A DNA stretch of 64,000 bases from Candidatus Nomurabacteria bacterium (GCA_963832025.1 CAWHSF010000002.1:17496-81495); one strand, 5' to 3'; numbered from the stretch's first letter, positions 6,166 through 64,000 are shown. The notes: generated by a model from the letters alone, not told the origin. Made by a program: numbers and translations.

Positions 6166-7149
6166 TTATTTATCCCGTAGTGAGCTTTGCTCTACTACTG
6201 GGACTAAATTAATCGGTGTGCCGGAAATAAGATTCTTAATGTTGTCTACTGTCGTGTGAATAATTCTCATCTCTGCTTCCACCGTATCAAAGGCAACGTG
6301 CGGAGTCATGACGACGTTTGGCAGATCAAGCATCGGCACATTGTCTCCTTTTTTTATTGCTCGTTCTCCTTCTAATACGTCCAAACCGGCACCAGCGATT
6401 ATGCCATCCTCCAAACCAACAACCAGCGCGTCAGTTTCAATCAATTCTCCACGAGCAGTATTGATCAAGTAAGCTCCTTTTTTAAACAAAGAAATATTTT
6501 CTTTGTTGATTAAATGATGATTCTCTTTTGTGTAAGGCGCATGAAGTGTGACAATGTCGGACTGTGCCAAAATTTCCGGCAAGCTTTTGTAGATAAAATT
6601 ATTTTCTTTGGCAAATGCTAAATCCGGATATAAATCATAAGCTATTACATTCATACCAAAGCCACGCGCGATGTGAATAACATTTTTGCCGATTTTCCCG
6701 GTGCCGACGACTCCCAGCGTTTTTCCGCTTAAATCAAAACCTTGCACATTTACGGGAACAGTATAATCTCTATTTTCTTTCAAAGATAAAATTGCTTCTC
6801 TCGTTTTTCTGGATAAAGTCAAAATTAAGGCAAAAGTAAATTCGGCCACCGTTTCGGAACCATAAGCCGGCACGTTGCAGATTTTTATATTTTTACTGTT
6901 GGCATAAGTGACATCGATATGGTCGAATCCGGTAGAGCGCGTGATAATCGCCTTTAAATTTGGCAAGCCATCGATAATTTCTTTTGTTATGACGGAATTG
7001 GTAAAAACACAGACAACGTCTACATCCTTGGCAAGTTCCAGATTGCTTTCGCTTAATTTTTCTTCATTAATAGAAATATCTACGCCGGCTAAAAGTTCCA
7101 AAAAAACAGCTTGTTCTGATTTTGGAACCTCAAAAAATGCGATTTTCAT
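6166..7149 (-). CDS. D-isomer-specific 2-hydroxyacid dehydrogenase (lactate/glycerate/hydroxypyruvate type)
   Basis: 327 aa with NAD-binding GVVGTGKIGKNV, plus NTARGELI and MTPHVAF motifs. Confidence 0.85.
   Translation of the reverse strand: MKIAFFEVPKSEQAVFLELLAGVDISINEEKLSESNLELAKDVDVVCVFTNSVITKEIIDGLPNLKAIITRSTGFDHIDVTYANSKNIKICNVPAYGSETVAEFTFALILTLSRKTREAILSLKENRDYTVPVNVQGFDLSGKTLGVVGTGKIGKNVIHIARGFGMNVIAYDLYPDLAFAKENNFIYKSLPEILAQSDIVTLHAPYTKENHHLINKENISLFKKGAYLINTARGELIETDALVVGLEDGIIAGAGLDVLEGERAIKKGDNVPMLDLPNVVMTPHVAFDTVEAEMRIIHTTVDNIKNLISGTPINLVPVVEQSSLRDK
6171..6203. repeat. ATCCCGTAGTGA/CTACTACTGGGA hairpin repeat (short form) forming the dehydrogenase C-terminus
   Basis: TATCCCGTAGTGAGCTTTGCTCTACTACTGGGA is nearly the same as 9721-9752. 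It encodes the last residues PVVEQSSLRDK; the stop codon (6166-6168) lies immediately 3' of it. Confidence 0.8.
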
Positions 7150-11599: not shown

Positions 11600-13279
11600 T
11601 TAAAGCTCTTCCTGAGATTCAGAGATAACTTTCGCACGCCAGAATTTAGTGCTGAGTGTTTTTGTTAGGTCTTTCAGTTCTTCGTTTTTAAGCAGATATA
11701 GGACAACAATAGCGGCTATGATGCCCAGAATTCCGGAAATTAAGCCTTGTAAAAAAATACCTGTAAACCGAGTCGTACCAAAAATTGGCGAAAGAACATT
11801 CAAGCTCAAGTAAGAAACTAGTCCAAGAAAAAAAGATGCGCCCAAGCTTTGGAAAAATGTCTTCGCAATATACTGCTCTCCCGGCATAAAATCTATTTTT
11901 ACAAAAATCCAATGTAGGACAAAATTGAGAGTGGTCCCCAGAGCATAAGCAAGTGGCAACATCAACACTTCTGTCCCCGGAATATCGTTCACTTTCAAAA
12001 GTGATTCAATAAAATATCGAAACATTAAATCATTTTCAAAAATTTTCATAAACACATAAGCAAAAACTATAATCAAAACTGAACAAATAAAATTTAAGAT
12101 TAATGGACGTGTAGTTTCCCCTTTCGCGTAATAAGCCCGAGAAACAAGTGAAATCATTCCTTGTCCTAAAACAGAAACAGAGAAGATCGCCAGACAAGCG
12201 GCAGCTAGACGAGTATCATTCCAAGAAAATGATCCGGAACCCAAAACCACACGGACAATTTGCGCCCGTAGAACAATAAAAAGAAAAGTTGCTGGAATAG
12301 ACCAAAAAACTATCGCTCTGGATGCAGATGTCAAATGTTCTTTAAATTTTTCATGTTTGCCCTCACCTATCGCTCGCGCCATGGTCGGAAAAGCAGCGAC
12401 GGCGTAAGAAACACCCACGATGGCGGCAGGAACCGACTGTAAATTGAAAGAAAAATTAAAAATAGAAATAGAGCCTGCAGTTAAAAATGAGGCAAAGGAT
12501 GTCATACCGATTTCCGCTACATTATTGAAAGCAAGCCCAAGCGTCCTCGGAAGCGAAGTGAGCGCCACTTTCCTTATTTCCTTAAAATTAATATTGAAGG
12601 AAAATTTCGGAGAAAAACCGCAATAATGCGAAGCGACAGCTTGAATGCCAAAATGCACCAAGGCTCCAAGGATAACACCATAAACCAAACCGGAAATACC
12701 GAAAATAGGATACAAAAATACGGCGCCGATGATAATTCCCACATTATAAAAAATTGGGCTCAGGGAAAAAATAAAAAATCTCTGGAAAAGCTGCGTAATC
12801 GTACCGAATAAATTTGAAAGACCAAGCAAAATAGGAGAAAGAAGCATTATTCTGGCAAGTAACACAACTTTAGCCTGATAATATGGCGTAAAACCCGGAG
12901 CGATAAAAAATACCAAATGAGGCATCAGGAAAAAAAGTATCACGGCAACCACCGCCATAACTCCAAAAAAAACGGTGAATACATCACCCAAAAATTTTTC
13001 AGCTTCTTTGGTCACTTTCCCGTTTGACATTTTAGCTGAAATAAAAGGAATCAAAACGGTAATTGAAGCAAGTGAAGCGATGCAAACAAAAATAAGATCC
13101 GGCACGCGAAAGGCCGCATAATATGCATCGAGTTGAGGTGAAGGTCCGATAAAATGAGCAATTGACCTGTCGCGAAACAGCGCCAATACTTGAGAAAGTA
13201 ACGTCAAACAACCCAAAAGTAATGCAGCTTGATTTACACTTCCAGATTCTTTAGTAAAAATTCGTAGAATCTTCTCCAT
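11600..13279 (-). CDS. murJ: Lipid II flippase MurJ
   Basis: 559-aa polytopic membrane protein. The N-terminus (LSQVLALFRDRSIAHFIG) and overall MVF/MOP architecture are typical of MurJ. Confidence 0.8.
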   Translation of the reverse strand: MEKILRIFTKESGSVNQAALLLGCLTLLSQVLALFRDRSIAHFIGPSPQLDAYYAAFRVPDLIFVCIASLASITVLIPFISAKMSNGKVTKEAEKFLGDVFTVFFGVMAVVAVILFFLMPHLVFFIAPGFTPYYQAKVVLLARIMLLSPILLGLSNLFGTITQLFQRFFIFSLSPIFYNVGIIIGAVFLYPIFGISGLVYGVILGALVHFGIQAVASHYCGFSPKFSFNINFKEIRKVALTSLPRTLGLAFNNVAEIGMTSFASFLTAGSISIFNFSFNLQSVPAAIVGVSYAVAAFPTMARAIGEGKHEKFKEHLTSASRAIVFWSIPATFLFIVLRAQIVRVVLGSGSFSWNDTRLAAACLAIFSVSVLGQGMISLVSRAYYAKGETTRPLILNFICSVLIIVFAYVFMKIFENDLMFRYFIESLLKVNDIPGTEVLMLPLAYALGTTLNFVLHWIFVKIDFMPGEQYIAKTFFQSLGASFFLGLVSYLSLNVLSPIFGTTRFTGIFLQGLISGILGIIAAIVVLYLLKNEELKDLTKTLSTKFWRAKVISESQEEL

Positions 13280-53525: not shown

Positions 53526-53975
53526 TTAACTGCCACTTACTTCAGAAACAGAGTTTACAGAATCAGAAACACCGGTTGGAGCTTTACATGCTTTTGTAGC
53601 TGTTCTAAATGCAGTCCAAGCAGCATTGCGACTTGTTCTCCAAGTCAAAGTTGCAGCTTTGATAGATTTAGAAAAATCAGCCCAAGCGGTTTTAACTCCT
53701 ATCTTTACTGTGGCTACCGTAGTATTTGAATATGCACCTGCTAATTCTATGACACGAGTGGAATATGCGGCACTCACAGCAGTTGCATGTGCAGTAACTG
53801 CAGCATCAATCGCTGCTTCTCTGGTAGCCACCGCTCCTCCTACGCAAGCAATTTTAGTAGCTGTTGTGGAAACTGTGGTGGTGCCTGCACTAGTAGTGGT
53901 TTGAGCCAAGACCGGAGATACTGCCAAAGTTAAAGCCAACAACATGACAGAAATCATCAAAATTTTCTTTATCAT
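53526..53975 (-). CDS. Secreted Ala/Thr-rich hypothetical protein
   Basis: Signal peptide MIKKILMISVMLLALTLAVSPVLA followed by low-complexity A/T-rich helical repeats. Start moved to ATG 53975. Confidence 0.55.
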   Translation of the reverse strand: MIKKILMISVMLLALTLAVSPVLAQTTTSAGTTTVSTTATKIACVGGAVATREAAIDAAVTAHATAVSAAYSTRVIELAGAYSNTTVATVKIGVKTAWADFSKSIKAATLTWRTSRNAAWTAFRTATKACKAPTGVSDSVNSVSEVSGS

Positions 53976-54030
53976 TTTGTCGTTAATTAATTTTAAATTA
54001 CTAATAATACCGACCTCTATATATAATATA

Positions 54031-54519
54031 TTAAAAAATAACAATGACAAGAAAAATAATTAGAATTTGAGATAAAACACCGATGACGGGTTTGTCGTCT
54101 ATTCTATATTTTGTATGGGCCCAATTATGAAGTCTTTGAAATGTCGTTAATGGTTCACATTTCCATTTCCAATAACAAAATTGTAATGCATCTGGCGTCA
54201 TTCCTCCTATCGCGCCAAATAGAATTATTAAAAAAGAATGTGGATGTAATGCTCCGACTAAAATAAAAGACAATAATAATCCTAAAATCCCATCAATACC
54301 AATTTTTATAAAATCTACATAAGATTCCTTACGGATGATTAGTTTAGTATTTAAAGAATTTTGTTTATCTTTTTCTAAACTAGCGACGGAGTAAGACCAG
54401 TGCGGTATCGCATCCAAAAGATAATGGCTTCCAAAGCCAATAACAAAACCCAAAACTGGATAACTTGGAACCAAGGTAGCCAGCGTGGCGCCAACGACCG
54501 CGTGTGTTGTGAGTGTCAT
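54031..54519 (-). CDS. Membrane-bound metal-dependent hydrolase (YdjM/DUF457-like)
   Basis: 162 aa with TTHAVVGATLA and a DAIPH motif plus four TM helices. Confidence 0.6.
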   Translation of the reverse strand: MTLTTHAVVGATLATLVPSYPVLGFVIGFGSHYLLDAIPHWSYSVASLEKDKQNSLNTKLIIRKESYVDFIKIGIDGILGLLLSFILVGALHPHSFLIILFGAIGGMTPDALQFCYWKWKCEPLTTFQRLHNWAHTKYRIDDKPVIGVLSQILIIFLVIVIF

Positions 54520-54791: not shown

Positions 54792-55046
54792 ATGACCAAA
54801 AAAGAAACTACCACTAATCTGCCTCATAAAATGCCAGCGGACTTTAGAGAAGCTCTGGCTTCTTCGCCCGTAGCAAAAGCAACATGGGATGATACTACCC
54901 TTCTCGCACACAATGAATGGATATGTTGGGTAATATCAGGTAAAAAAGCGGAGACAAGGGGTATACGCATCAAGAAAGCTCTCTCAAAACTTAAGGGCGG
55001 AATGCGCCGACCATGCTGTTGGGCTGGTTGTATTCATCGCAAATAA
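54792..55046 (+). CDS. YdeI/OmpD-associated family protein
   Basis: 84 aa with MPADFREALASSPVAKATWDD...HNEWICWVISGKKAETR, typical of this family. Confidence 0.65.
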   Translation: MTKKETTTNLPHKMPADFREALASSPVAKATWDDTTLLAHNEWICWVISGKKAETRGIRIKKALSKLKGGMRRPCCWAGCIHRK

Positions 55047-55135: not shown

Positions 55136-55163
55136 ACTCCGCACATAGAAAAATGTTCGAAAT
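55136..55163 (+). repeat. Degenerate copy (R0) of the GCTCCGAAC...GATGTTCGAAT intergenic repeat
   Basis: ACTCCGCACATAGAAAAATGTTCGAAAT compared with the minimal copy GCTCCGAACCTGGGAGGATGTTCGAAT (63854). Confidence 0.5.
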
Positions 55164-55189
55164 CTTTTTGTGGAGGGAATTAAAATATC

Positions 55190-55960
55190 TTAGAGTTGTT
55201 TTATTGATTTCTTTGAATCTCCTTGTAGGGTGGCAAAAGCTTCTTGGACTGTTGTCATAAACTGAGCTGGAAAGATAATTGTAGAATTTTTTTCAGTAGC
55301 AATTTCAGCCATTGTTTGAAGAGTACGGAGCTGCAAAGCAACCGGATGCGCGGCGATAAGGTCTGCCGCTTGACCTAATTTCTCGGCTGCTTGAAATTCG
55401 CCTTGGGCAGCCACAATTTTAGCACGACGTTCACGTTCTGCTTCCGCTTCTTTGGCCATCGCTCGTTGCATATTGTCGGGCAAGACAATATCTTTAATTT
55501 CCACAGCTGTTACTTCTGCACCCCATGGTTCTGTATGAGAATCAATCACATCTTTAATTTGAATATTAATGTCACTTGTTTGGGAAAGCAATTGGTCTAG
55601 AGAGAAACGCCCAACAACATTTCGTACTGTTGTCTGGCTGATTTGATTTACCGCATTGTAAACATTTTCAATTGCCACAACAGACTTTTGCGAATCAACG
55701 ATGTGATAATAAGCAACTGCGGCAATGTCAATTGATACGTTATCTTTGGTAATAATTTTTTGTGACGGAATATTCATGGTAATCGTACGTAATGTTACCT
55801 TGGTCATAAGTTCAAAAAAAGGAATTAGAAAAATAAGTCCCGGACCACGCACTCCTGTGCATTTACCAAGAAAAAAGATAACGCCACGGTCATACTCTTT
55901 TACCACTCTCAATGAAAACACAAGCAATACTACGATAATTCCTAAGATTATATATATCAT
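55190..55960 (-). CDS. SPFH/band-7 (stomatin-like) protein
   Basis: 256 aa with an N-terminal TM helix, [14 protein letters not shown] and an [12 protein letters not shown] coiled coil. Confidence 0.88.
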
Positions 55961-55972
55961 AAATAATTAAGA

Positions 55973-56155
55973 TTATTTCCAGGTGTAAAGGTGCACCGCA
56001 ATATACATGGCGAGCATGCCAAGTGCGAAGCCTGCGCATACTGTGACGACGTCATGGAAGGGTTTCCAAATTACCCCAAACCATGAGAGTGTGAGAATAA
56101 TTGCCCACACGACAGCTACTCCGATTACATACACATAAAGAGGACGTTTGTTCAT
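55973..56155 (-). CDS. Small two-TM membrane protein upstream of the stomatin-like gene
   Basis: 60-aa ORF with two hydrophobic helices, tightly coupled to the SPFH gene. Confidence 0.5.
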   Translation of the reverse strand: MNKRPLYVYVIGVAVVWAIILTLSWFGVIWKPFHDVVTVCAGFALGMLAMYIAVHLYTWK

Positions 56156-56204
56156 GGATACATTATACCATACTTTGTTGGAAAAAACTTATCTAAACGA
56201 AAGT

Positions 56205-56247
56205 CACCCCGGCATGTAGGTCGAGGGACCTTCATTGTGCCGGGGTG
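56205..56247 (-). terminator. GC-rich hairpin terminator of the higher-GC orphan gene
   Basis: CACCCCGGCA-(23 nt)-TGCCGGGGTG lies immediately downstream of the stop at 56254. Confidence 0.6.
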
Positions 56248-56253
56248 GTGATG

Positions 56254-56583
56254 TCAGAAGCAAGGACTTTGCTCAATTATGTCCGGTGGATTATCGTCGT
56301 TCTCCTTGCAGAGAGCGACAACTTGAGCCCATTTCGGCCCAAACTTGCCATCGGGTTTCAGCCCTTCGACTGGAACACCGAACACCAGTGCAGCGTTGAT
56401 GAAGTCGTCGCATTGACCCGGATACCTGCTTGCTCTCTCAACAGCCAAGAGAAACAAGCGAAACTTCTTCTCGGGAACTTCATCCACTAGTTTGATCTGA
56501 TCCCATTCGAGATCCCCCCGCGAAGCTGAGAGAATAAGAACTGCGCTTACGAAGTAAGCGCTTCTTTTCCATTTTTTGTTCAT
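56254..56583 (-). CDS. Orphan secreted/lipid-anchored protein in a locally GC-rich island
   Basis: MNKKWKRSAYFVSAVLILSASRGD... (109 aa). A strong AAGGAG RBS sits 5 nt upstream of ATG 56583. The composition is visibly more GC-rich than the flanks. Confidence 0.6.
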   Translation of the reverse strand: MNKKWKRSAYFVSAVLILSASRGDLEWDQIKLVDEVPEKKFRLFLLAVERASRYPGQCDDFINAALVFGVPVEGLKPDGKFGPKWAQVVALCKENDDNPPDIIEQSPCF

Positions 56584-56654
56584 TAGACTCCTTATTTCGA
56601 TTTGGTAGTACAAACTCAATATTGGTTTAACATAAAAAAACAAGGATGTCACGC

Positions 56655-56701
56655 TGACTTCGAACACAGTAAGTCTTTAGGCTCGAATGAGATGTTCAAA
56701 T
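56655..56701 (+). repeat. Divergent copy (R7) of the intergenic repeat family
   Basis: GACTTCGAACACAG...GCTCGAATGAGATGTTCAAAT. Its 3' part matches the R3 tail GACTCGAATGAGATGTTCGAAT. Confidence 0.6.
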
Positions 56702-56706
56702 TGTTT

Positions 56707-57090
56707 TCATCTTTCAACACTCAAGGCCTCTTGAATATCTTCTGGAAAATCAGACATTTCTTGTATCTGACGAATATCGACTACCCCATCTTGAAATGGG
56801 ATTTGCTTAGCCCAAGCAATTGCATCTTCTTTTGTTTCTACTTTGATAATCCAGTAACCGGCAACTAATTCTTCAGGGTTTGGAAATGGACCGTCAGTAA
56901 CCGTGGGTTCATTGTTGGAAAATAAAATTCTCGCTCCTTCAGAACTAGGGTGTAAACCATCAAGTGCAATCAAAACACCTGCATCTTGAAGTTTTTTATT
57001 ATATTTTTCCATCACAACAAACATCTCTTTGTCGGGCAAAGCACCTTTTTCAATCTCTTTGTTACTCTTTACAAACATTATGAATTTCAT
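56707..57090 (-). CDS. YciI/DGPF-family protein
   Basis: 127 aa with DGPFPNPEELVAGYWIIKVETKEDAIAWAKQIP, typical of the YCII-related domain. Confidence 0.75.
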   Translation of the reverse strand: MKFIMFVKSNKEIEKGALPDKEMFVVMEKYNKKLQDAGVLIALDGLHPSSEGARILFSNNEPTVTDGPFPNPEELVAGYWIIKVETKEDAIAWAKQIPFQDGVVDIRQIQEMSDFPEDIQEALSVER

Positions 57091-57103
57091 GAGTTTAATT
57101 AAA

Positions 57104-57544
57104 TTAAATTATAAAGCTAAACACCAAAACAATTACCAAAAATGTCACTAAATTTGATAGCGAATCAGAGAAAAATTTCTTCCATCTTAATTTTTGATCA
57201 ATGTTTCCCCAAAGCAAAGATTGCCCAATTATTGGAACAACAAAACAAAGCCAGACGGCAAACACTTCCCCATAAATAATTGCAGAGCCAAAAGTTTTTT
57301 GTTCTATCATTATAAAAGCTATAAAAGCGGATGTCAGAAACGAAAGAAACATCTGTGCTAAATAATATTTCCACATTTTTGGTTTCATTTCTTTCATTTT
57401 CAAATCTTGCTCTTCCTTGGAAAATTTAGAAAAACCAGTGGACTCTAAATGAACTTTCCCCATCGGAGTTTTCATCGAATACCAAAGTGACCCGATCACA
57501 GCACTGATAATAGCACCCAAAATTCCAAGTAAAATTATTGTCAT
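57104..57544 (-). CDS. DUF1761-like membrane protein
   Basis: 146 aa with four TM helices and N-terminus ILGAIISAVIGSLWYS. Confidence 0.6.
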   Translation of the reverse strand: MTIILLGILGAIISAVIGSLWYSMKTPMGKVHLESTGFSKFSKEEQDLKMKEMKPKMWKYYLAQMFLSFLTSAFIAFIMIEQKTFGSAIIYGEVFAVWLCFVVPIIGQSLLWGNIDQKLRWKKFFSDSLSNLVTFLVIVLVFSFII

Positions 57545-57620
57545 GAATTTATCTATTGTTTTTAAATCTTATAATGGATAAATTATAATATCTTTAGATA
57601 CTTTTGACTAGTACTCGCTG

Positions 57621-57703
57621 GCTCTAAACCTGCTTTGCTCTTCCAAAGTTTTAACGAAGGAGAGGGAGAGTTTACGCTGAGCTAGCTGAAGTGATGTTCG
57701 AAT
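57621..57703 (+). repeat. 83-bp intergenic repeat R1 (long form)
   Basis: GCTCTAAACCTGCTTTGCTCTTCCAAAGTTTTAACGAAGGAGAGGGAGAGTTTACGCTGAGCTAGCTGAAGTGATGTTCGAAT is 79/83 identical to R2. Confidence 0.92.
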
Positions 57704-57735
57704 TAGTTTACTTGATGAGAAGTCTTGATGAAGAA

Positions 57736-58668
57736 TTATAATTCATGCTGTTTTTTAAAGATAAACAGCTTATATAATAAAAAGAGGGCTGGTAAAAGAA
57801 TAATCATTCCGACAGCAAAACTCCATTCAATTAAAGTGAGAGATGTACTATTGGTAATGCTCGAAACAAGTGTAGTAGTCGGATAAACAATATAAGGTAA
57901 ATGCGCAATAAATAATCCCCAAAAAAACGTAGCCATGCATGCACACAAAAAAACAAAACTCCATGCATAGGCATCGACTACTTCTGTGATTAAAACTGCC
58001 GCAATGCAAAAAAGCATAATGCCTGCTATCCATGCCTCTATATTATTATTTACAAAAAGATACGGCAGGTCACGAGCGATAGTAATTAAAAAAAACGTTG
58101 CAGATAGAAAGAATAAGGTACCACTTAAACGTAAGAATTTTGTGAGTCTCACGTTTTTTTTGTAAACTCTAAAAAATGCAAGGGTCATAGTAGCAATATA
58201 GGCAATGGTGCTGAAAGAAAGCCAAAAATAAAGGGAGGTCTTAATATATAAGACCCAAGAACCAGTAAAAAAATATAAGAAAATTAGGGCGAAAAGGATT
58301 GGTACGATAAAACTGGTGAGAAAATAAATAACATCAATGGTCTTTGATTTTACATCACTGTATTGCTTAAATAAAATACAAATAATGCGCACAGAAAAAA
58401 TAATTAAAGTGGTAAATGTAATAGTGAACAAATCGGTACCCCATCTAGATGTTGCGCCAGGAAAACATGCAAACATCGAAGTTAGGGAAAAAACTAAAAA
58501 CACACTTGTTGTCTCCCATATCGGATTTAAATATTCGCGTATCGTATCTTTTTCAGGCAGTAAATTCGGGAAAACAGCAAAAATCGAAGACCCAAATTCA
58601 ATTGAAGAAAAAATAAAATATATAAAAAGAGAAGAAGCAGTTACAAAAAAAGCTATATTTTCTTTCAT
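57736..58668 (-). CDS. cydB: Cytochrome bd-type oxidase subunit II
   Basis: 310-aa polytopic protein translationally coupled (4-nt overlap) to the subunit I gene. Confidence 0.75.
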   Translation of the reverse strand: MKENIAFFVTASSLFIYFIFSSIEFGSSIFAVFPNLLPEKDTIREYLNPIWETTSVFLVFSLTSMFACFPGATSRWGTDLFTITFTTLIIFSVRIICILFKQYSDVKSKTIDVIYFLTSFIVPILFALIFLYFFTGSWVLYIKTSLYFWLSFSTIAYIATMTLAFFRVYKKNVRLTKFLRLSGTLFFLSATFFLITIARDLPYLFVNNNIEAWIAGIMLFCIAAVLITEVVDAYAWSFVFLCACMATFFWGLFIAHLPYIVYPTTTLVSSITNSTSLTLIEWSFAVGMIILLPALFLLYKLFIFKKQHEL

Positions 58669-60065
58669 ATATCAGATTTATCATTAATAAAGTATTCTGT
58701 ATCTAAATCTAGCTTTGTACGATTATAGTGACGAATCAAAATCCATGGAGTCAGAATAAGAAGAATCGTATAGATGCTTGGGAAAATAGAGCCGAACTCA
58801 ATCACTGTTTTAGAAGTCGTAAACGCTTGTGAGACGGTCATAATTCCCCGTATCACATAGGGCTGACGTCCCACTTCTGTTACTATCCAACCAAATTCCA
58901 TTGCAAGAAAAGAAGCTGCCCCGCTTAAGACTATAAGACCGAGTATTATGTGCGAGAAAGCATGTTTTCTTTTCCAAAAAAATAAAATAAAAAATAAAGT
59001 CACCACAAAAGCAATATACATGCCGAAGAAAACCATAAGGTCAAACATCGCATGAATCCAGAGTGGCGGCCAGGTATTTGGATTAAATGAATCAAGACCT
59101 CGTACCACCGCCGTTTCCCGACCAAAAGAAAGAAAACTCAAAAGTCTTGGTATTTGAATTGCATCTTCAAGGTGGCCGTTTCTTTCTATTCCTCCAATTT
59201 CCATTGGTGCGCCAGCTTGCGTGTGCTCCGCGATCTCGGCAGCGGCAAATTTAAGTGGTTCATTATTTGCAATGTATCGGGCAGATTGATCGCCAGTAAC
59301 AGTCATCAGTAAAGCGAAAACCGTGCCAATGACCATTGTGTACACAAGCGCCTTTTTGCGATAAGTTCTCAGTTTTTCGTGTTCCCTTTCGTCAGGAATA
59401 ATATTTTTTTTCTTTAGTAAATGTTTCGTTCTGTGCTTGTGGAAACCTAGACTCCACGCATAGATACCTGCAAAAACGAGCGCAGTGGTTAAATAATAAG
59501 AGACAATAGAGTGTGTCGTTTCAGTATACGTTGCCTTATTGAACATCGCAGCGATAGGATTGATATTTGAGGCTACTCCATTTGTATACATAAAACCAGC
59601 TGGGCTGTTCATCCACGCATTTGCGGTGGTAATAAAGAAGGCAGAAGCAAGTGAACCCAGCACGATAGGTAGCGAGCAAAGCCAATGTGTATATTTATTT
59701 TTAAAACGATCCCAAGAATATAAGTAAATTCCGAGAAATATTGCCTCAATAAAAAAAGCAAAACCCTCCATGTAAAATGGAAGTCCGATAACCCTGCCGG
59801 CAAGCGCCATAAAATTTGGCCAAAGCATACTGAGTTGATTGGAAATGATCATGCCAGAAACAGCTCCTACTACAAAAAGTGTACCCATAGCAAAACTCCA
59901 CCGTCTGGCCATAGTATAAAAATCATTGTCTTTTTTAAAAATACCGATAAGCTCTGCGAGCGAAATAAGCAAAGGAATACCCACTCCAAAAAGCGCAAAT
60001 AAAATATGAAATCCAAGAGAATCTCCCATGAAAACACGACCGGCTGAAAGTGAATTTCCATTCAT
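58665..60065 (-). CDS. cydA: Cytochrome bd-type ubiquinol oxidase subunit I
   Basis: 466 aa with GWIVTEVGRQPYVI and N-terminal FHILFALFGVG, typical of CydA. Confidence 0.85.
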   Translation of the reverse strand: MNGNSLSAGRVFMGDSLGFHILFALFGVGIPLLISLAELIGIFKKDNDFYTMARRWSFAMGTLFVVGAVSGMIISNQLSMLWPNFMALAGRVIGLPFYMEGFAFFIEAIFLGIYLYSWDRFKNKYTHWLCSLPIVLGSLASAFFITTANAWMNSPAGFMYTNGVASNINPIAAMFNKATYTETTHSIVSYYLTTALVFAGIYAWSLGFHKHRTKHLLKKKNIIPDEREHEKLRTYRKKALVYTMVIGTVFALLMTVTGDQSARYIANNEPLKFAAAEIAEHTQAGAPMEIGGIERNGHLEDAIQIPRLLSFLSFGRETAVVRGLDSFNPNTWPPLWIHAMFDLMVFFGMYIAFVVTLFFILFFWKRKHAFSHIILGLIVLSGAASFLAMEFGWIVTEVGRQPYVIRGIMTVSQAFTTSKTVIEFGSIFPSIYTILLILTPWILIRHYNRTKLDLDTEYFINDKSDI

Positions 60066-60142
60066 CTGAAAATTATATCACAAAGATATAGAAAAGCTGG
60101 CTGTTATATTTAGCTCTTGCTTCATTTTAAGTAAAAAGCTTT

Positions 60143-60225
60143 GCTCCGAACCTGCTTTGCTCTTCCGAAGTTTTAACGAAGGAGAGGGAGAGTTTACGCT
60201 GAGCTAGCCGAAGTGATGTTCGAAT
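60143..60225 (+). repeat. 83-bp intergenic repeat R2 (long form)
   Basis: GCTCCGAACCTGCTTTGCTCTTCCGAAGTTTTAACGAAGGAGAGGGAGAGTTTACGCTGAGCTAGCCGAAGTGATGTTCGAAT. Confidence 0.92.
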
Positions 60226-60243
60226 AGCAATAACTAAAAACGA

Positions 60244-60519
60244 CTAGAATATACCTGGCCCATCTCCATCTAAATACCACTTTCCTTCTATATTAACTAT
60301 TTTTATAGTCTGACCAGACGAAGTCTTACATATACCATAGGTATCAGTTTTTTCCAGCAACTGAACACAGCCCCTAAAAGCGTAGTAGTTTTCAAAAGTG
60401 CTGTGTACCTCGCGCAGATAAAACCACTGACTTATTGCAAGTCCTATTACTATTCCTGCGATAAAAGCTAATATCCGTGCCCATAAACATTTTTTCAAAG
60501 TCATTCTAATTGTTTCCAT
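60244..60519 (-). CDS. Hypothetical membrane-anchored small protein
   Basis: 91 aa with one TM helix (ILAFIAGIVIGLAISQWF) and a small soluble domain containing two Cys. Confidence 0.5.
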   Translation of the reverse strand: METIRMTLKKCLWARILAFIAGIVIGLAISQWFYLREVHSTFENYYAFRGCVQLLEKTDTYGICKTSSGQTIKIVNIEGKWYLDGDGPGIF

Positions 60520-60651
60520 ATGCTAAAAGCATATCACAAGTTCGAACTTCTACTAAGTTAGAAAAAATAACCGTTGAAAATTATGGTTTATTTTGATACT
60601 CGTTCGAGAGAGTTTAATGGAAAGACCGGCTTAATTTGTTATAATACTGAA

Positions 60652-61104
60652 ATGATGAATCCTATGATTTTTCTTTTAATAAACACAGCCCTAGGGTTTT
60701 ACAACGTAGGCACAATTTGGGCAATGGAAGTTGATATTTTTCGATCTTGGAAATTAGTTGGTCTAGAAAATTTTCGTAATATTCAAGAAGTTCATTGGAG
60801 GAAACTTCCCTATTGGATTTTTACACCTGTTTGTCTAGCTTTAATTGGTTCTATTATTCTTTTTTGGTATCACCCCCAAGGTTCACCCATCTGGGCAATC
60901 TGGGGAGTTTTTCTTTCTCAATTTTTATCTTTGGTGCTTACTGGAATTTTCTGGGGTCAATGGCAAGCCAAGCTAAGTAAAGATCCTCTCGGACCACAAA
61001 GTATATATCTTACTAAAATACTCAAAACCCATTGGGTGAGAACTTTACTAATTAATCTTTCCGCTATAATTTTGATTATTTGGATAATTCAATTGATGCA
61101 TTAA
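60652..61104 (+). CDS. Hypothetical four-TM membrane protein
   Basis: MMNPMIFLLINTALGFYNVGTIWAMEVD.... I prefer ATG 60652, which lies 6 nt after a TGTTATAAT box and may be leaderless. Confidence 0.5.
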   Translation: MMNPMIFLLINTALGFYNVGTIWAMEVDIFRSWKLVGLENFRNIQEVHWRKLPYWIFTPVCLALIGSIILFWYHPQGSPIWAIWGVFLSQFLSLVLTGIFWGQWQAKLSKDPLGPQSIYLTKILKTHWVRTLLINLSAIILIIWIIQLMH

Positions 61105-61106
61105 TT

Positions 61107-61124
61107 CTGGGAGGATGTTCGAAT
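61107..61124 (+). repeat. Truncated copy (R6) of the intergenic repeat (3' end only)
   Basis: CTGGGAGGATGTTCGAAT is identical to the 3' 18 nt of R5 and starts 3 nt after the stop codon. Confidence 0.7.
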
Positions 61125-61182
61125 GGTAATCACTCAACAATATATTAAAAAAGTTAATTTTAACATTATATCTACGTCATTG

Positions 61183-61210
61183 ATTGACAAAGTTTTAAAA
61201 AACTGTATAT
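61183..61210 (+). promoter_or_regulatory. Sigma70-like promoter of the higher-GC orphan gene
   Basis: TTGACA-16 nt-TATATT lies about 75 nt upstream of ATG 61287. Confidence 0.5.
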
Positions 61211-61286
61211 TGCAAGAATTACGTCGTCGAGGGTATTCCATCCTTCAGATGACTTAATTGTCCTTTACGGACACAAGGAGATTTTG

Positions 61287-61712
61287 ATGACTACCTTTAA
61301 TTTCACTGCAAGTTGTCTGATCGCCACAGAATTCATGCTACGAGTACTCAACGGAAAGTGGCAAGGAGGAAAACTCCAAGGTCCACCGAGTTGGGCGAGC
61401 AGAGTACCGTTCTTTTCGAAGATTACCGCTACCCCAATTAAAACATCGGCCCATCCAGCAAGCTATCGCTTGCTAGGCGCAACTTGGACCAAGGTGAAAC
61501 GAGAAGTGTCATTCTATCGGTTCGGTTTGTTGTTTGCGACTATAACTCTTTCAGGCTCGAAATATGGAAATGAGCTTGATAATGAATCGTCGTGGCGCGT
61601 AACAAAGATTCGTTGCGCTATGACGTGGGTTGGTTCTCTGGAAGATCTTGAGCCTAAAGATTGGATAGAAATTGAGGTCCAAGGAGAACCAAGTAAGATT
61701 AGTGTTCTGTAA
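61287..61712 (+). CDS. Orphan protein in a locally GC-rich segment
   Basis: 141 aa with an AAGGAG RBS 7 nt upstream and its own terminator. No family recognised. Confidence 0.55.
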   Translation: MTTFNFTASCLIATEFMLRVLNGKWQGGKLQGPPSWASRVPFFSKITATPIKTSAHPASYRLLGATWTKVKREVSFYRFGLLFATITLSGSKYGNELDNESSWRVTKIRCAMTWVGSLEDLEPKDWIEIEVQGEPSKISVL

Positions 61713-61734
61713 AACCATCTCCCGTACAATGAGA

Positions 61735-61760
61735 GCCCCGTGCTCCGTGTGCGGGGTTTT
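61735..61760 (+). terminator. Rho-independent terminator
   Basis: GCCCCG-tgctccgtgtg-CGGGG followed by TTTT. Confidence 0.65.
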
Positions 61761-61782
61761 CATTTATTATGTAATTTTGCTT

Positions 61783-61833
61783 GCTCCAAACCTGGGACAG
61801 TTTACACTGAGCTAGTCGAAGTGATGTTCGAAT
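61783..61833 (+). repeat. 51-bp copy (R4) of the intergenic repeat (internal deletion form)
   Basis: GCTCCAAACCTGGGACAGTTTACACTGAGCTAGTCGAAGTGATGTTCGAAT. Confidence 0.88.
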
Positions 61834-61891
61834 GAATTTGGTGGGAGAAATCGTAATAGACACACCTAAAATAACTTAGTATTATATAAAT

Positions 61892-62131
61892 ATGGAACAA
61901 AATCCTAAAGATAAACCAAAAGTAGGTGGTATAGAAAAAGGAGCAATATCATTGGGAAGACTAGAGAATAATAATGTTCGAAAAATTGAATTGGGTAAAG
62001 TTTATCCTATGGAAGATATTGAGCTTATGTTTGACGCAAGGTTGGGGGAACAATTAAAAACCATGTTGAAGAAACATTTTGAATACACGATTGATAATGG
62101 AAAAATTACCTTTACTAAAAAGGTAGGTTAG
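61892..62131 (+). CDS. Hypothetical small protein
   Basis: 79-aa ORF bounded by repeats R4 and R3. No family recognised. Confidence 0.45.
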   Translation: MEQNPKDKPKVGGIEKGAISLGRLENNNVRKIELGKVYPMEDIELMFDARLGEQLKTMLKKHFEYTIDNGKITFTKKVG

Positions 62132-62137
62132 CATTTT

Positions 62138-62156
62138 AGGACATCTGTCCTTTTCT
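62138..62156 (+). terminator. Weak hairpin plus T-run after the 79-aa ORF
   Basis: AGGAC-atct-GTCCT followed by TTTCT; the stem is only 5 bp. Confidence 0.3.
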
Positions 62157-62251
62157 GCTCCGAACCTGCTTTGCTCTTCCGAAGTTTTAACGAAGGAGAG
62201 GGACGTCGTTCAGACTCTGAGAGTCTTCAGACTCGAATGAGATGTTCGAAT
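62157..62251 (+). repeat. 95-bp copy (R3) of the intergenic repeat (alternative internal module)
   Basis: GCTCCGAACCTGCTTTGCTCTTCCGAAGTTTTAACGAAGGAGAGGGACGTCGTTCAGACTCTGAGAGTCTTCAGACTCGAATGAGATGTTCGAAT. Confidence 0.9.
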
Positions 62252-62279
62252 GAGTTTAATCGGTAAAAAAGGTTAATTT

Positions 62280-62843
62280 TTATAGTACCCAGAGAGGCTT
62301 ATAACGAAGAAAAATATTCCCTGATTTAAATTCATGGACTTTAACAAGTTTTAGTTTATACCTTTTTTCTATGTTTAAAAATAAAGATTTACCTTTACCG
62401 AGGATTACTGGGTTTATAATTAAACGATATTCATCAATCACCCCTAAATCAGCAAGAGCAGATACAATCATACCACTGCCAAAAATGGCAATATCTTTAC
62501 CTTCTGCTTGTTTTATTTTTTTTATTTCGTCTGCATTAATTTCAGAAAATATTTTTGAATTATTCCAAGCAAGTTCCTCTTTGGTTTTAGAAAAAACAAT
62601 CTTAGACAGGCTATTCATTTTATCTGCAACAATTGGATCATCCTTTAAGGCATTCTCTGTAGGCCAATAATTTGCCATGAGCTCGTAAGTAATACGACCA
62701 AACATAAGAGTATCTAAGGTATTGAGAAATTTAATAGCATAGTCATTAAATTCAGCGTCAACATTATGCCAATCGATTTCACCATCTGGTCCAGCAAAAA
62801 AACCATCAATCGTGATCATTTCTTGTACAATTATTTTTCTCAT
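62280..62843 (-). CDS. Dihydrofolate reductase-like (RibD C-terminal domain) family protein
   Basis: MRKIIVQEMITIDGFFAGPDGEIDWH...FGRITYELMANYWP...IFGSG. Start moved to ATG 62843. Confidence 0.75.
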   Translation of the reverse strand: MRKIIVQEMITIDGFFAGPDGEIDWHNVDAEFNDYAIKFLNTLDTLMFGRITYELMANYWPTENALKDDPIVADKMNSLSKIVFSKTKEELAWNNSKIFSEINADEIKKIKQAEGKDIAIFGSGMIVSALADLGVIDEYRLIINPVILGKGKSLFLNIEKRYKLKLVKVHEFKSGNIFLRYKPLWVL

Positions 62844-62847
62844 GGGA

Positions 62848-63246
62848 TTATTTTGGTTTCCACTCAGTGGCTTGGAGCAAGCCAAAGACATTGCCTTCAG
62901 TATCTATCGCACGAGAGAACCAACCCAGGCCTTTCATTTCCCACTTCTCTTTTCCCTCCCAGGGTTCAATCTCCCCACCATTAGCCTTAATAGCTGTGAT
63001 TACTTTATCAATGTCATCCACCAAAACTGTACAATCAAAACTGTTGAGTTTACCCATGGCATCCTTTCGTTTAAAAAGTCCACCATCAATTCCAGGCCCC
63101 TCTCCGGTCATCACCATCCAATAATCCATCCCGACACCAGGCATCTTTGATTTTTCTATCTTCCAACCAAGAGTATTTTCGTAAAACTTTTTTGCCCGTT
63201 CGGCATCGTCCGCTTGAACCTCAAAATGTATTGGTCTATTTGACAT
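62848..63246 (-). CDS. VOC/glyoxalase-family protein
   Basis: MSNRPIHFEVQADDAERAKKFYENTLGWKIE...GGL.... Start moved to ATG 63246. Confidence 0.72.
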   Translation of the reverse strand: MSNRPIHFEVQADDAERAKKFYENTLGWKIEKSKMPGVGMDYWMVMTGEGPGIDGGLFKRKDAMGKLNSFDCTVLVDDIDKVITAIKANGGEIEPWEGKEKWEMKGLGWFSRAIDTEGNVFGLLQATEWKPK

Positions 63247-63300
63247 ATTTAATATATAAAAAATTAATTTATAAACTCGACTAATTATATTATGACACAC

Positions 63301-63774
63301 TCATTTCCCCACCTTTTTCAATGTTTCAATATCAATCTTCTTCATCTGTAACATTGCTTCCATTTTTTCTTTTGCAATTTTTGGATTAGCATCTTCAAGT
63401 AATTCCGACATATTTTCTGGAACAATCTGCCATGAAACTCCAAACTTGTCTTTCAACCAACCGCATTGTTCCGATTCTTTAACTGCCGATAGTTTTGTCC
63501 AGTAAGAATCAATTTCTTCTTGTGACTGACACGGTATTATAAAAGATACAGCTTCATTCGCCTTAAAAAAAGGACCACCATTTAATGCCAAAAAAGGATT
63601 ACCATCGAGTTCGAAAGATACAGTCAAGACACTACCTATAGGCTTGTTGGAGGGTGATTCGGTACTGTATCGAGCAACATGCAGAATCTTAGAATTCTTG
63701 AAAACCGAAACATAAAAATTCGCCGCTTCCTCAGCTTCACCATCAAACCAAATACAAGGTGTAATTTTTTTCAT
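63301..63774 (-). CDS. VOC-superfamily protein (PhnB / 3-demethylubiquinone-9 methyltransferase-domain-like)
   Basis: MKKITPCIWFDGEAEEAANFYVSVFKNSKI...DKFGVSWQIVP, typical of this family. Confidence 0.75.
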   Translation of the reverse strand: MKKITPCIWFDGEAEEAANFYVSVFKNSKILHVARYSTESPSNKPIGSVLTVSFELDGNPFLALNGGPFFKANEAVSFIIPCQSQEEIDSYWTKLSAVKESEQCGWLKDKFGVSWQIVPENMSELLEDANPKIAKEKMEAMLQMKKIDIETLKKVGK

Positions 63775-63853
63775 ATTTTTTTGTTTTTACTGTTAATTAG
63801 TCGACCTCAAATATTATAGACGAAATTCAAACTTTTTCATTACTTAAATTTTG

Positions 63854-63880
63854 GCTCCGAACCTGGGAGGATGTTCGAAT
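63854..63880 (+). repeat. Minimal 27-bp copy (R5) of the intergenic repeat
   Basis: GCTCCGAACCTGGGAGGATGTTCGAAT consists of the two conserved ends joined directly. Confidence 0.85.
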
Positions 63881-63893
63881 AGCGATAAGAAGC

Positions 63894-63926: not shown

Positions 63927-64000
63927 CGTTGATGGGTGTGAGATAAAATCATCACAAATGTAAACACAAAGGAACATTTACTTTCATGGCCTGGCGGGTG

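Follow-up and report, generated by a model that had tools for sequence, protein, structure and literature searches.

A block of accessory genes at the right-hand end of a 64,000-nt stretch of Candidatus Nomurabacteria DNA (GCA_963832025.1 CAWHSF010000002.1:17496-81495; "the window" below means this whole stretch) is, in the reading that we favour (probability roughly 0.6), the distal part of a chromosomal gene-cassette array whose cassettes entered by site-specific recombination, at the 3' end of a tRNA-Asn gene or at a 27-bp sequence mimicking that end, through the action of an enzyme with its gene elsewhere. The gene units of the block are separated by copies of a short repeat, designated R0 to R7 (Table 1). 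In the window and in related contigs this repeat is a conserved site of 27 bp, which has a single orientation in each locus and delimits modular cargo; in other genomes its arrays are anchored at tRNA-Asn and it takes the position of the tRNA 3' end. The window belongs to a Paceibacteria-type member of the Patescibacteria and is chromosomal (LeuRS, MurJ, LepA, DnaE and HisRS are encoded). Patescibacteria (candidate phyla radiation, CPR) have tiny genomes with few recognised mobile elements, and their accessory gene pool is unexplained. We know of no report of integrons in this group.

The 27-bp site and its copies

A first-pass annotation of the window had listed eight copies of the repeat. 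Five of them (R1 to R5) are full copies with the coordinates, lengths and interiors that it described; R6 is a half copy and R7 is degenerate. R0 was significant in neither position weight matrix (PWM) nor profile searches and is only a possible relic. The total thus comes to five full copies, one half copy and one or two decayed copies (R7, R0), every one of them on the + strand and within the last 9 kb. Repeat finding grouped R1, R2 and R3 as one family, which R4 joined through a shared 3' part. That the copies have common ends was borne out by pattern searches: a gapped pattern containing both ends matched four times (R1, R2, R4 and R5) compared with no match in 100 shuffles, and the 3' end GATGTTCGAAT, with at most one mismatch allowed, matched seven times, always on the + strand and within 56691-63880 (shuffle mean 1.83; none of 100 shuffles reached seven).

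R5 had been regarded as a copy consisting of the ends only. The relation is the reverse: the minimal copy R5 is the canonical element, the 27-bp site GCTCCGAACYTGGGASGATGTTCGAAT, and the long copies are derived forms carrying inserts. Half-sites of the form T.CGAAC.T occupy positions 3-11 and 18-26 and are dyad-related around an asymmetric GGGASG centre. Read on the gene strand (the - strand of the window, which carries most of the cassette genes), the site is a 27-33-bp sequence, ...A.A...ATTCGAACATCSTCCCARGTTCGGAGC, placed at the cassette end.

A PWM and a sequence-only covariance model or profile were built from 39 sites of other genomes and scanned over both strands of the window. The profile recovered R5 with an E-value of 1.6e-11 and R6 with an E-value of 9e-6 (profile positions 10-30; PWM score 12.6), and R1 to R4 were detected as half-sites. 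The right arm of R0 alone scored (E 1.1), and R7, whose right arm matches at 10 of 11 positions, was undetected at E<=10. No further significant match was present on either strand of the window, all matches lying on the + strand at 57.6-63.9 kb. From right to left the sites are intact (R5, R6), interrupted (R1-R4) and decayed (R7, R0). Such a gradient is consistent with cassettes entering from the right, the side that corresponds to the tRNA-proximal end in other loci.

The distribution of the site was determined by scanning a strict 27-mer pattern, with degenerate positions allowed, over 185,579 species-representative genomes (one per species). Matches were obtained in contigs of about 14 Patescibacteria-type metagenome-assembled genomes (MAGs) labelled Paceibacteria, Saccharibacteria or Nomurabacteria, and in two contigs binned elsewhere. 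A scan of metagenomes added at least 120 further loci, so that 139 loci (given L numbers here) had been fetched in all at that stage; the site total is at least about 200 copies in at least about 125 Patescibacteria contigs. No match was found in IMG/VR, PLSDB or INPHARED, the virus and plasmid collections searched. The two contigs binned elsewhere, L009 (Rhabdochlamydiaceae) and L017 (Cytophagales), are of low GC content and carry typical 27-mers, in L017 a full array; they may be Patescibacteria contigs in wrong bins, or may reflect transfer outside the phylum.

Relaxed searches of the MAG loci revealed arrays of up to 8-10 sites per 8 kb, with a single orientation per locus. Polarity was strict: 50 of the 139 fetched loci hold two or more sites, and mixed orientation was seen in none of the 50. 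Inter-site intervals (n=79) had a median length of 894 bp and mostly contained one or two open reading frames (ORFs). For 73% of these ORFs the coding strand is opposite to that of the site as written, so that the site is downstream of them; the other 27% run the other way. The single repeat orientation combined with variable gene orientation, noted for the window in the first-pass annotation, is seen in the other loci as well. Over the sequence covered, the window and the loci where that annotation had envisaged whole genomes, the sites were polar and clustered. Its suggestion of a scattered repeat of the enterobacterial repetitive intergenic consensus (ERIC), repetitive extragenic palindromic (REP) or miniature inverted-repeat transposable element (MITE) type was not supported: no copies occur elsewhere in the window and orientation is never mixed. 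The sites resemble REPs, bacterial interspersed mosaic elements and the palindrome-associated transposable elements (PATEs) derived from IS200/IS605 in being short imperfect intergenic palindromes that collect small hairpin inserts. However, REPs are dispersed in both orientations, whereas the sites described here occupy one locus, are strictly polar and delimit variable genes.

In a comparison of 181 distinct contexts, conservation reached at least 94% over positions 1-27, with the exception of positions 6, 7, 10 (C/T), 16 (C/G/T) and 27; G14 and A15 are nearly invariant, and arrays are internally variable at position 16. Beyond the right end of the 27-mer, T31, T33 (98%), T36 and A39 are conserved as well. 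To the left of position 1 nothing is conserved. The arms, although dyad-related, do not covary: among 214 sites G6 was changed to A 34 times with C23 unchanged, and changes of A7 to C were likewise uncompensated. Since arm changes are never compensated, the palindrome is not kept as a stem.

These data bear on two explanations that require a folded site. One is an RNA-level element, a tRNA-acceptor-like minihelix in each 3' untranslated region acting as a processing or termination signal. The site is downstream of 73% of the cassette ORFs, it stands in the position of tRNA-Asn upstream of the same terminator-like module, and its gene strand can form a 6-7-bp stem ending in GGAGC. Against such a role, the orientation of the site is independent of that of the genes (27% of the ORFs, including four genes of the window, are opposite), there is no covariation, and fold z-scores are about 0. 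A search of Rfam gave nothing at gathering thresholds over the window, and over the block nothing even at E<=10. The RNAalifold energy of the site alignment was -1.15 kcal/mol. We consider an RNA element highly improbable.

The other is a classical integron array, or cluster of attC sites lacking integrons (CALIN), with divergent attC sites. The array resembles one functionally. Co-oriented sites lie between short gene units with accessory-type cargo, the cassettes hold one or two genes with one recombination site each at the 3' end of the gene unit, most genes have the same orientation as well, entry is fixed at one end with older cassettes further off, and exchange apparently takes place at the outer edge of the cassette-borne site. 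However, attC sites are structured hairpins of 57-141 bp, whereas the canonical site is smaller than this range, a conserved sequence of 27-33 bp without covariation. The integron R''/R' consensus is RYYYAAC/GTTRRRY; here the gene-strand ends are TTCGAAC and GTTCGGA, of which AAC and GTT alone fit. An attC-type hairpin was rejected: single-stranded DNA folds of six copies, on both strands, had z-scores of -1.3 to +1.2 relative to shuffles. The first-pass annotation had itself noted that AAC...GTT was all that was retained of the attC consensus and that no convincing attC fold could be drawn, and both remarks hold. A search of the window and the 139 loci with a single XerD probe revealed no IntI-like tyrosine recombinase, and no enzyme gene is linked to the array. 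The point of entry is a tRNA gene 3' end, and inspection of flanks, the only basis here, suggests that each cassette has a terminator, and possibly a promoter, of its own. Identity with an integron or CALIN, proposed in the first-pass annotation, is therefore hardly tenable.

The inserts of the long copies occur at two points, after positions 12 and 16. R1 and R2 consist of positions 1-12, the 32-nt module B, GGGAG, module C and positions 17-27, and R3 of positions 1-12, module B, GGGAC, the 36-nt module D and positions 17-27. R4 (positions 1-16, the 24-nt module C and positions 17-27) has the same architecture as sites in L006 and L115. Many other interiors, often GC-rich hairpins, were found at the same two insertion points in other loci. 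Module D, GTCGTTCAGACTCTGAGAGTCTTCAGACTCGAATGA, contains a hairpin and was found at 62205-62240 of the window, in L061 (11949-11984), L083 (4786-4817) and L113 (565-589). In L113 it lies inside a site. In L061 and L083 it is 100% identical and lies not in a site but inside module M, a 65-nt sequence made up of AGGTTCGAACTTCTAC, a hairpin whose stem is CCAT/ATGG or CCTT/AAGG, and AAAATTTT. The identity of module D in differing contexts of unrelated contigs indicates that it behaves as a small mobile insert, and its targets appear to be the sites and the module that flanks them. Module M was found ahead of 41 of 200 sites compared with about 1% of random windows (BLAST), and M-like sequence also precedes tRNA-Asn in L008 and L013. 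The long copies are thus interrupted sites and are probably inactive.

Position of the arrays at tRNA-Asn and modularity of the units

tRNA-Asn(GTT) genes were found with ARAGORN in 17 loci, and further copies, split by introns, were detected by BLAST in 7 loci. In all 14 loci in which positions were checked, tRNA-Asn and the sites are on opposite strands, and the tRNA is always found at the same array end. When reverse-complemented, the tRNA-Asn 3' end (GCTCCGYGGGTAGGRWTCGAACC) has GCTCCG, GGKAGGAT and TTCGAA in common with the 27-mer and differs from it by indels; the outer end of the site (CGGAGC on the gene strand) copies the 3' end of the tRNA. The two sequences also occupy equivalent positions. 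In L074 and L045 a gene for a large serine recombinase (LSR) runs with its 3' end into tRNA-Asn, and a homologous 3' fragment enters the 27-mer in L012, L047 and L082; the tRNA-bound and the 27-mer-bound LSR ends diverge just past GCTCCG. Similarly, one 150-nt unit precedes the tRNA in L028 and the 27-mer in L055. The site takes the position of the tRNA-Asn 3' end, and this positional evidence is stronger than the sequence similarity. True duplicates of 16-19 nt of the tRNA-Asn 3' end were also found, 100-190 nt from a 27-mer or the tRNA.

In several loci tRNA-Asn is split after the anticodon by about 300 or about 570 bp (L026 1385-1755, L069 644-1287 and L123 7050-7688; also L076, L079, L122 and L068). 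These copies were considered as attachment-site crossovers in the anticodon loop. The idea was rejected, since the inserts were identified with Rfam as group I introns in L026, L069 and L123. The window itself ends with a GC-rich stretch at 63986-64000, ATGGCCTGGCGGGTG; a + strand gene may begin there, or the stretch may be a tRNA 3' end seen in antisense (CACCCGCCAGGCCA).

The cargo is modular with respect to the sites. Endpoints of homology between loci fell within 12 nt of a site in 91 of 818 cases, compared with 18 of 818 for random positions, a 5-fold excess. A Logan contig is 100% identical to the window over 62974-63868 (895 nt, the unit with the VOC genes) and departs at site position 16, where it continues as CGTCGTTCAGACTCT, an interior that belongs to R3 and not to R5. 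In that sample, the VOC unit is thus followed by a different site variant. Exact-protein look-ups past the right end of the window returned a single 910-bp contig or nothing. In a sister genome, L143 (GCA_031291825.1), cydAB and OmdA are found next to the same DsbD-MsrB-MsrA anchor as in the window, with a different order and other genes between genomes; a comparison of synteny, advised in the first-pass annotation, thus revealed differences in order and content at a common anchor. Unidirectional site arrays in about 50 other contigs, with differing cargo and with homology blocks ending at sites, uphold the description of the block as a cassette-array-like accessory region. The further suggestion of an undescribed recombination or cassette system also stands as a possibility. 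A search of the literature on the motif, on integrons or cassettes in CPR, on Xer/dif in Patescibacteria and on serine-recombinase cassette arrays yielded no description.

The same observations could be explained by passive scars, if elements such as LSR islands inserted serially into tRNA-Asn and the repeats were displaced, inactive attachment-site remnants between decayed elements. LSR elements do adjoin tRNA-Asn in six loci (L074, L089, L045, L026, L140 and L142), LSR gene fragments are found in arrays, the 16-19-nt duplicates are true copies of the tRNA end, and several copies in the window are decayed or interrupted. There is also a precedent in the tycheposons of Prochlorococcus, in which sequential tRNA-linked integration pushes older elements outward (10.1101/2020.12.28.424599). 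Tycheposon islands resemble the arrays in being variable islands beside a tRNA gene, with outward displacement, with tRNA-derived repeats between cargo blocks and with elements of tyrosine or large serine recombinases on the same tRNA, in a streamlined host with few classical mobile elements. However, tycheposon repeats are true partial tRNAs between kb-scale units or remnants, whereas the arrays have a distinct 27-mer common to different classes, single-gene units and up to 8-10 sites per 8 kb. The 27-mer differs from the tRNA end by indels and so is no copy of it. It is near-invariant across Paceibacteria, Saccharibacteria and Nomurabacteria with unrelated flanks, whereas scars should decay and match the local tRNA. 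Complete single-gene intervals of about 0.9 kb are unlike remnants of 5-10-kb elements, and LSR islands exist without any 27-mer. We consider the scar explanation unlikely. If the arrays were mere scars, they would still mark a phylum-wide integration hotspot at tRNA-Asn.

Crossover position and candidate enzymes

In the mechanism that we propose, a cassette would be a set of one to three accessory genes ending in the 27-33-bp site. A recombinase encoded elsewhere in the genome would have two alternative targets, the genuine 3' end of tRNA-Asn and its 27-bp mimic; DNA would be exchanged at or beside the end common to both, the tRNA end playing the role of the integron attI. With exchange at the tRNA end, circular cassettes would enter beside the tRNA; older cassettes would be shifted outward and all sites would retain one orientation. 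The excision and insertion of circles, the crossover position and the class of the enzyme are points that we infer. Since the distal sites of the window are interrupted (R1-R4) or decayed (R7, R0), most of the array is probably frozen.

The position of the exchange was approached through polymorphic positions of the site. In 81 pairs of sites with the left flank alone in common, polymorphisms agreed no better than chance. In the pairs with the right flank alone in common, all four agreed at positions 6, 7 and 27. This linkage, the one-sided conservation, the left flanks common to tRNA and 27-mer, and the breakage of the acceptor stem that a central exchange would cause, together suggest that exchange takes place at the left end or close to it, within the GCTCCG block common to the tRNA. 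Because the dyad symmetry suggests a central exchange and the right-flank pairs are few, this placement is tentative.

A central crossover would make the site a double-stranded core site, exchanged within GGGASG by a Xer-like tyrosine recombinase or a serine recombinase, with units comparable to dif modules and integrative mobile elements exploiting Xer (IMEX), or to the staphylococcal cassette chromosome (SCC) with its Ccr recombinases. Half-sites flanking a 6-bp asymmetric centre have the geometry of dif, lox and hix sites. Near-invariant G14 and A15 followed by a variable position 16 fit a 2-bp serine-type overlap or the spacer tolerance of Xer. LSR is the most recurrent protein family of the loci, and an alternative junction in L001 starts at position 16, which is compatible with either crossover position. 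However, flank linkage argues for exchange at the left end, and conservation is asymmetric, with an extension on the right only. Central exchange with the tRNA-Asn end would destroy the acceptor stem, yet tRNA and 27-mer have common left flanks. As for an LSR in particular, LSR islands exist without arrays. Like passive scars, a central crossover is judged unlikely, and marginally more so.

The likeness to Xer-dependent elements (IMEX at dif, and the pdif modules of Acinetobacter) lies in a site of 27-28 bp with inverted arms and a 6-bp centre, and in modules without a recombinase of their own. In contrast to dif, the locus does not coincide with a skew switch, the site does not occur throughout the phylum, and the linkage data argue against a central crossover; pdif sites alternate, whereas the sites here are all direct. 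A dif site was rejected on GC skew, patchy distribution and site multiplicity. GC skew is negative in 52 of 64 1-kb windows, with no switch at the array; a terminus at the right end would call for the opposite sign. With matches to the strict pattern in contigs of only about 14 Patescibacteria-type MAGs among the 185,579 genomes scanned, the site is not a general dif of Patescibacteria. The 27-mer is unrelated in sequence to what we take to be the E. coli dif.

SCC elements at rlmH also provide recombinase-free cargo cassettes, head to tail at one site, with short direct-repeat attachment sites and mobilisation in trans by CcrAB. Target, site and host differ, and the ccr genes are inside the SCC array. 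The LSR found here, unlike CcrAB, has its own attachment at the tRNA and occurs without arrays. Its gene was present in 15 loci (Resolvase, Recombinase and Zn_ribbon_recom domains in Pfam). LSR islands measure 5-10 kb, contain an HTH_17 gene and restriction-modification cargo, and are attached inside the tRNA-Asn 3' end. Two LSR homologues picked independently of the site abut tRNA-Asn with no 27-mer within 10 kb, which weakens the candidacy of LSR as the array recombinase; the co-occurrence of LSR and arrays is best explained by a common target locus.

Some features of the LSR genes were recorded in addition. In L074 (2146-2157), L045, L089, L140 (11456-11470) and L142 the tRNA-Asn 3' end, read in antisense, supplies the last LSR codons (WLRG) and the stop codon; in some homologues the frame runs on through the tRNA, giving C-termini such as ...WLREQGSNLRPIA. 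A conserved C-terminal LSR fragment of about 95 aa occurs as a unit within arrays (L012 6278-6565, L047 1790-2074 and L082 2937-3494). Its ORF has an internal Met start, is 95-96 aa long in L012 and L047 and longer in L082, and reads through the 27-mer (...NWLRTWDDVR...). The fragment may be a relic or a retained small protein. The LSR island of L089 contains a LOOT RNA (80 bits), and past the distal end of the island there is a SAM riboswitch (6852-6975 and 11704-11821).

A further alternative is a selfish short repeat moved on single-stranded DNA, with passenger genes, by an HUH enzyme of the IS200/IS605, RAYT or PATE kind that inserts 3' of GGAGC, the end of tRNA-Asn or of the previous copy. 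Strict single orientation, an imperfect palindrome at one unit end with a second hairpin (module M) near the other end in a fifth of units, and an apparent exchange at the palindrome boundary would suit such a mechanism. Head-to-tail arrays would follow if the element end re-created its own target, and small hairpin inserts (module D) do move between sites. The 27-mer stem, however, is not kept by compensatory changes, and predicted single-strand folds are no better than shuffles. The copies are at one locus and not dispersed, and no Y1/HUH gene was seen among recurrent or top cargo families in a check that was not exhaustive. Movement by an HUH enzyme thus appears improbable.

Several observations weigh against a cassette array entered at tRNA-Asn. 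The window contains no tRNA (ARAGORN) and ends 120 nt past R5, so the link of arrays to tRNA-Asn is documented from other genomes only. In L026 a 27-mer is 5' of tRNA-Asn and on the same strand, unlike in the 14 other checked loci. The similarity of the 27-mer to the tRNA end is, taken alone, modestly significant (0-3 of 300 shuffles for three of four tRNAs). In L143 there is one clean 27-mer only, and cydAB and OmdA have no recognisable sites. Neither a circular cassette nor a pair with an empty site was seen directly. The dyad symmetry conflicts with the flank-linkage result, which rests on four right-flank pairs. As to the enzyme, phmmer and jackhmmer searches with a single E. coli XerD probe, of limited sensitivity, found no tyrosine recombinase in the window or in the 139 loci (836 kb in all). 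None of the larger ORFs next to arrays was assigned to Phage_integrase with Pfam, and the window yielded no serine recombinase, in agreement with the first-pass statement that it contains no integrase. No recombinase was linked to the 27-mer as its enzyme in the loci examined, and the LSR homologues that lack the site add to this difficulty.

The reading as a cassette array served from elsewhere in the genome nevertheless remains the one that we prefer. A more far-reaching version, which we hold tentatively and at somewhat less than even odds, is that Patescibacteria possess a second, independently evolved integron-like platform for gene capture, in which entry would be at the tRNA-Asn 3' end, cassettes would carry the 27-bp mimic, an unlinked recombinase or nuclease would move single-gene cassettes across classes, and hairpin inserts would disable sites and thereby fix cassettes. 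There is a substantial chance of an independent integron-like system with its own enzyme. If this is true, a searchable conserved 27-bp site delimiting single-gene cassettes would give a direct handle on gene acquisition in Patescibacteria. It would permit cassette-targeted PCR or metagenomic mining, as with attC, and could help to find a new enzyme of site-specific recombination whose target is short and defined.

Gene units and cargo

The repeat copies and gene units of the window are listed in Table 1.

Table 1. Repeat copies and gene units of the window, from left to right
Feature	Coordinates	Strand	Description
OmdA/YdeI unit	54792..55046	+	Oldest recognisable cassette; homologous to a site-bounded cassette in L016 (3968-4303)
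R0	55136..55162	+	Possible decayed 27-mer; length equal, 19/27 vs consensus (hand count)
SPFH/Band 7 gene and 60-aa ORF	55190..56155	-	Pfam
Orphan one-gene unit	56254..56583	-	109 aa, GC 0.49
R7	56655..56701	+	Degenerate; right arm GATGTTCAAAT, weak left arm, interior module-D-like (cf. R3)
YCII and DUF1761 unit, R7-R1 interval	56707..57544	-	Pfam
R1	57621..57703	+	83 bp; like R2 except for two left-arm changes (GCTCTAAACCTG)
cydB-cydA unit, R1-R2 interval	57736..60065	-	Pfam
R2	60143..60225	+	83 bp; inserts B and C
Divergent two-gene unit, R2-R6 interval	60244..61104		91 aa (-), 150 aa (+)
R6	61098..61124	+	Half copy; GGGAG core and right arm (61107-61124) intact, left arm decayed
One-gene unit, R6-R4 interval	61287..61712	+	141 aa, no family, gene GC 0.45
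R4	61783..61833	+	51 bp; one insert, the 24-nt module C, after position 16
One-gene unit, R4-R3 interval	61892..62131	+	79 aa, no family
R3	62157..62251	+	95 bp; inserts: module B (32 nt) after position 12, module D (36 nt) after position 16
Three-gene unit, R3-R5 interval	62280..63774	-	RibD_C (DHFR-like), glyoxalase/VOC, 3-dmu-9_3-mt/VOC; Pfam
R5	63854..63886	+	Intact canonical 27-bp site (63854-63880) and conserved 6-bp right-hand extension incl. T33

Families were assigned to the genes of the window with Pfam, in agreement with the earlier assignments (yciI-like, DUF1761, cydAB, DHFR-like and two VOC genes). The two units that had been singled out for foreign-looking GC content do stand apart: the orphan unit has 0.48-0.49 and the unit encoding the 141-aa protein 0.42-0.45, compared with 0.375 +/- 0.025 for the rest of the window. 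The decayed left arm of R6 overlaps the stop codon of the ORF at 60652-61104. The 79-aa protein has a 47% identical homologue in L097, a locus that also holds a 27-mer. The SPFH gene is 91% identical to its counterpart in L036 at the nucleotide level and 97% at the protein level; in L036 the neighbouring genes differ and site copies follow.

The array had been taken to start at 55136. An OmdA homologue in L011 sits between two degenerate site-like sequences, and the OmdA cassette is thus present in three arrays. This homology to cassettes indicates that the array of the window reaches further left, to include the OmdA unit.

Across the arrays 83 Pfam families were recognised in 118 ORFs, including NUDIX, HIT, GNAT, Fic, AviRa and YafQ, with no recombinase. 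Recurrent small cargo families were NUDIX, NYN, Fic, DUF1428 and small kinases, and recombinases were not among these. The cargo comprises genes of oxidative-stress, detoxification, toxin and resistance types, and cytochrome bd oxidase.

Three minor observations concern neighbouring genes. L144 (8050-10000) and L145 (1136-2568) encode an identical DsbD-like protein and the segment just upstream is wholly replaced, AAA_18 and an AviRa rRNA methyltransferase in one corresponding to an unrelated 256-aa ORF in the other; no 27-mer is present at the boundaries. The presence of cydAB is unusual for a Paceibacteria-type genome, and its location within the variable locus in both the window (57736-60065) and the sister genome L143 (6304-8623) suggests that it was acquired as cargo. 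Finally, an ORF just to the left of the array (53526-54050) is 56% identical to L030 3740-4201. Since the homologue in L030 lies beyond tRNA-Asn, on its far side, gene order around the array differs between the two genomes.

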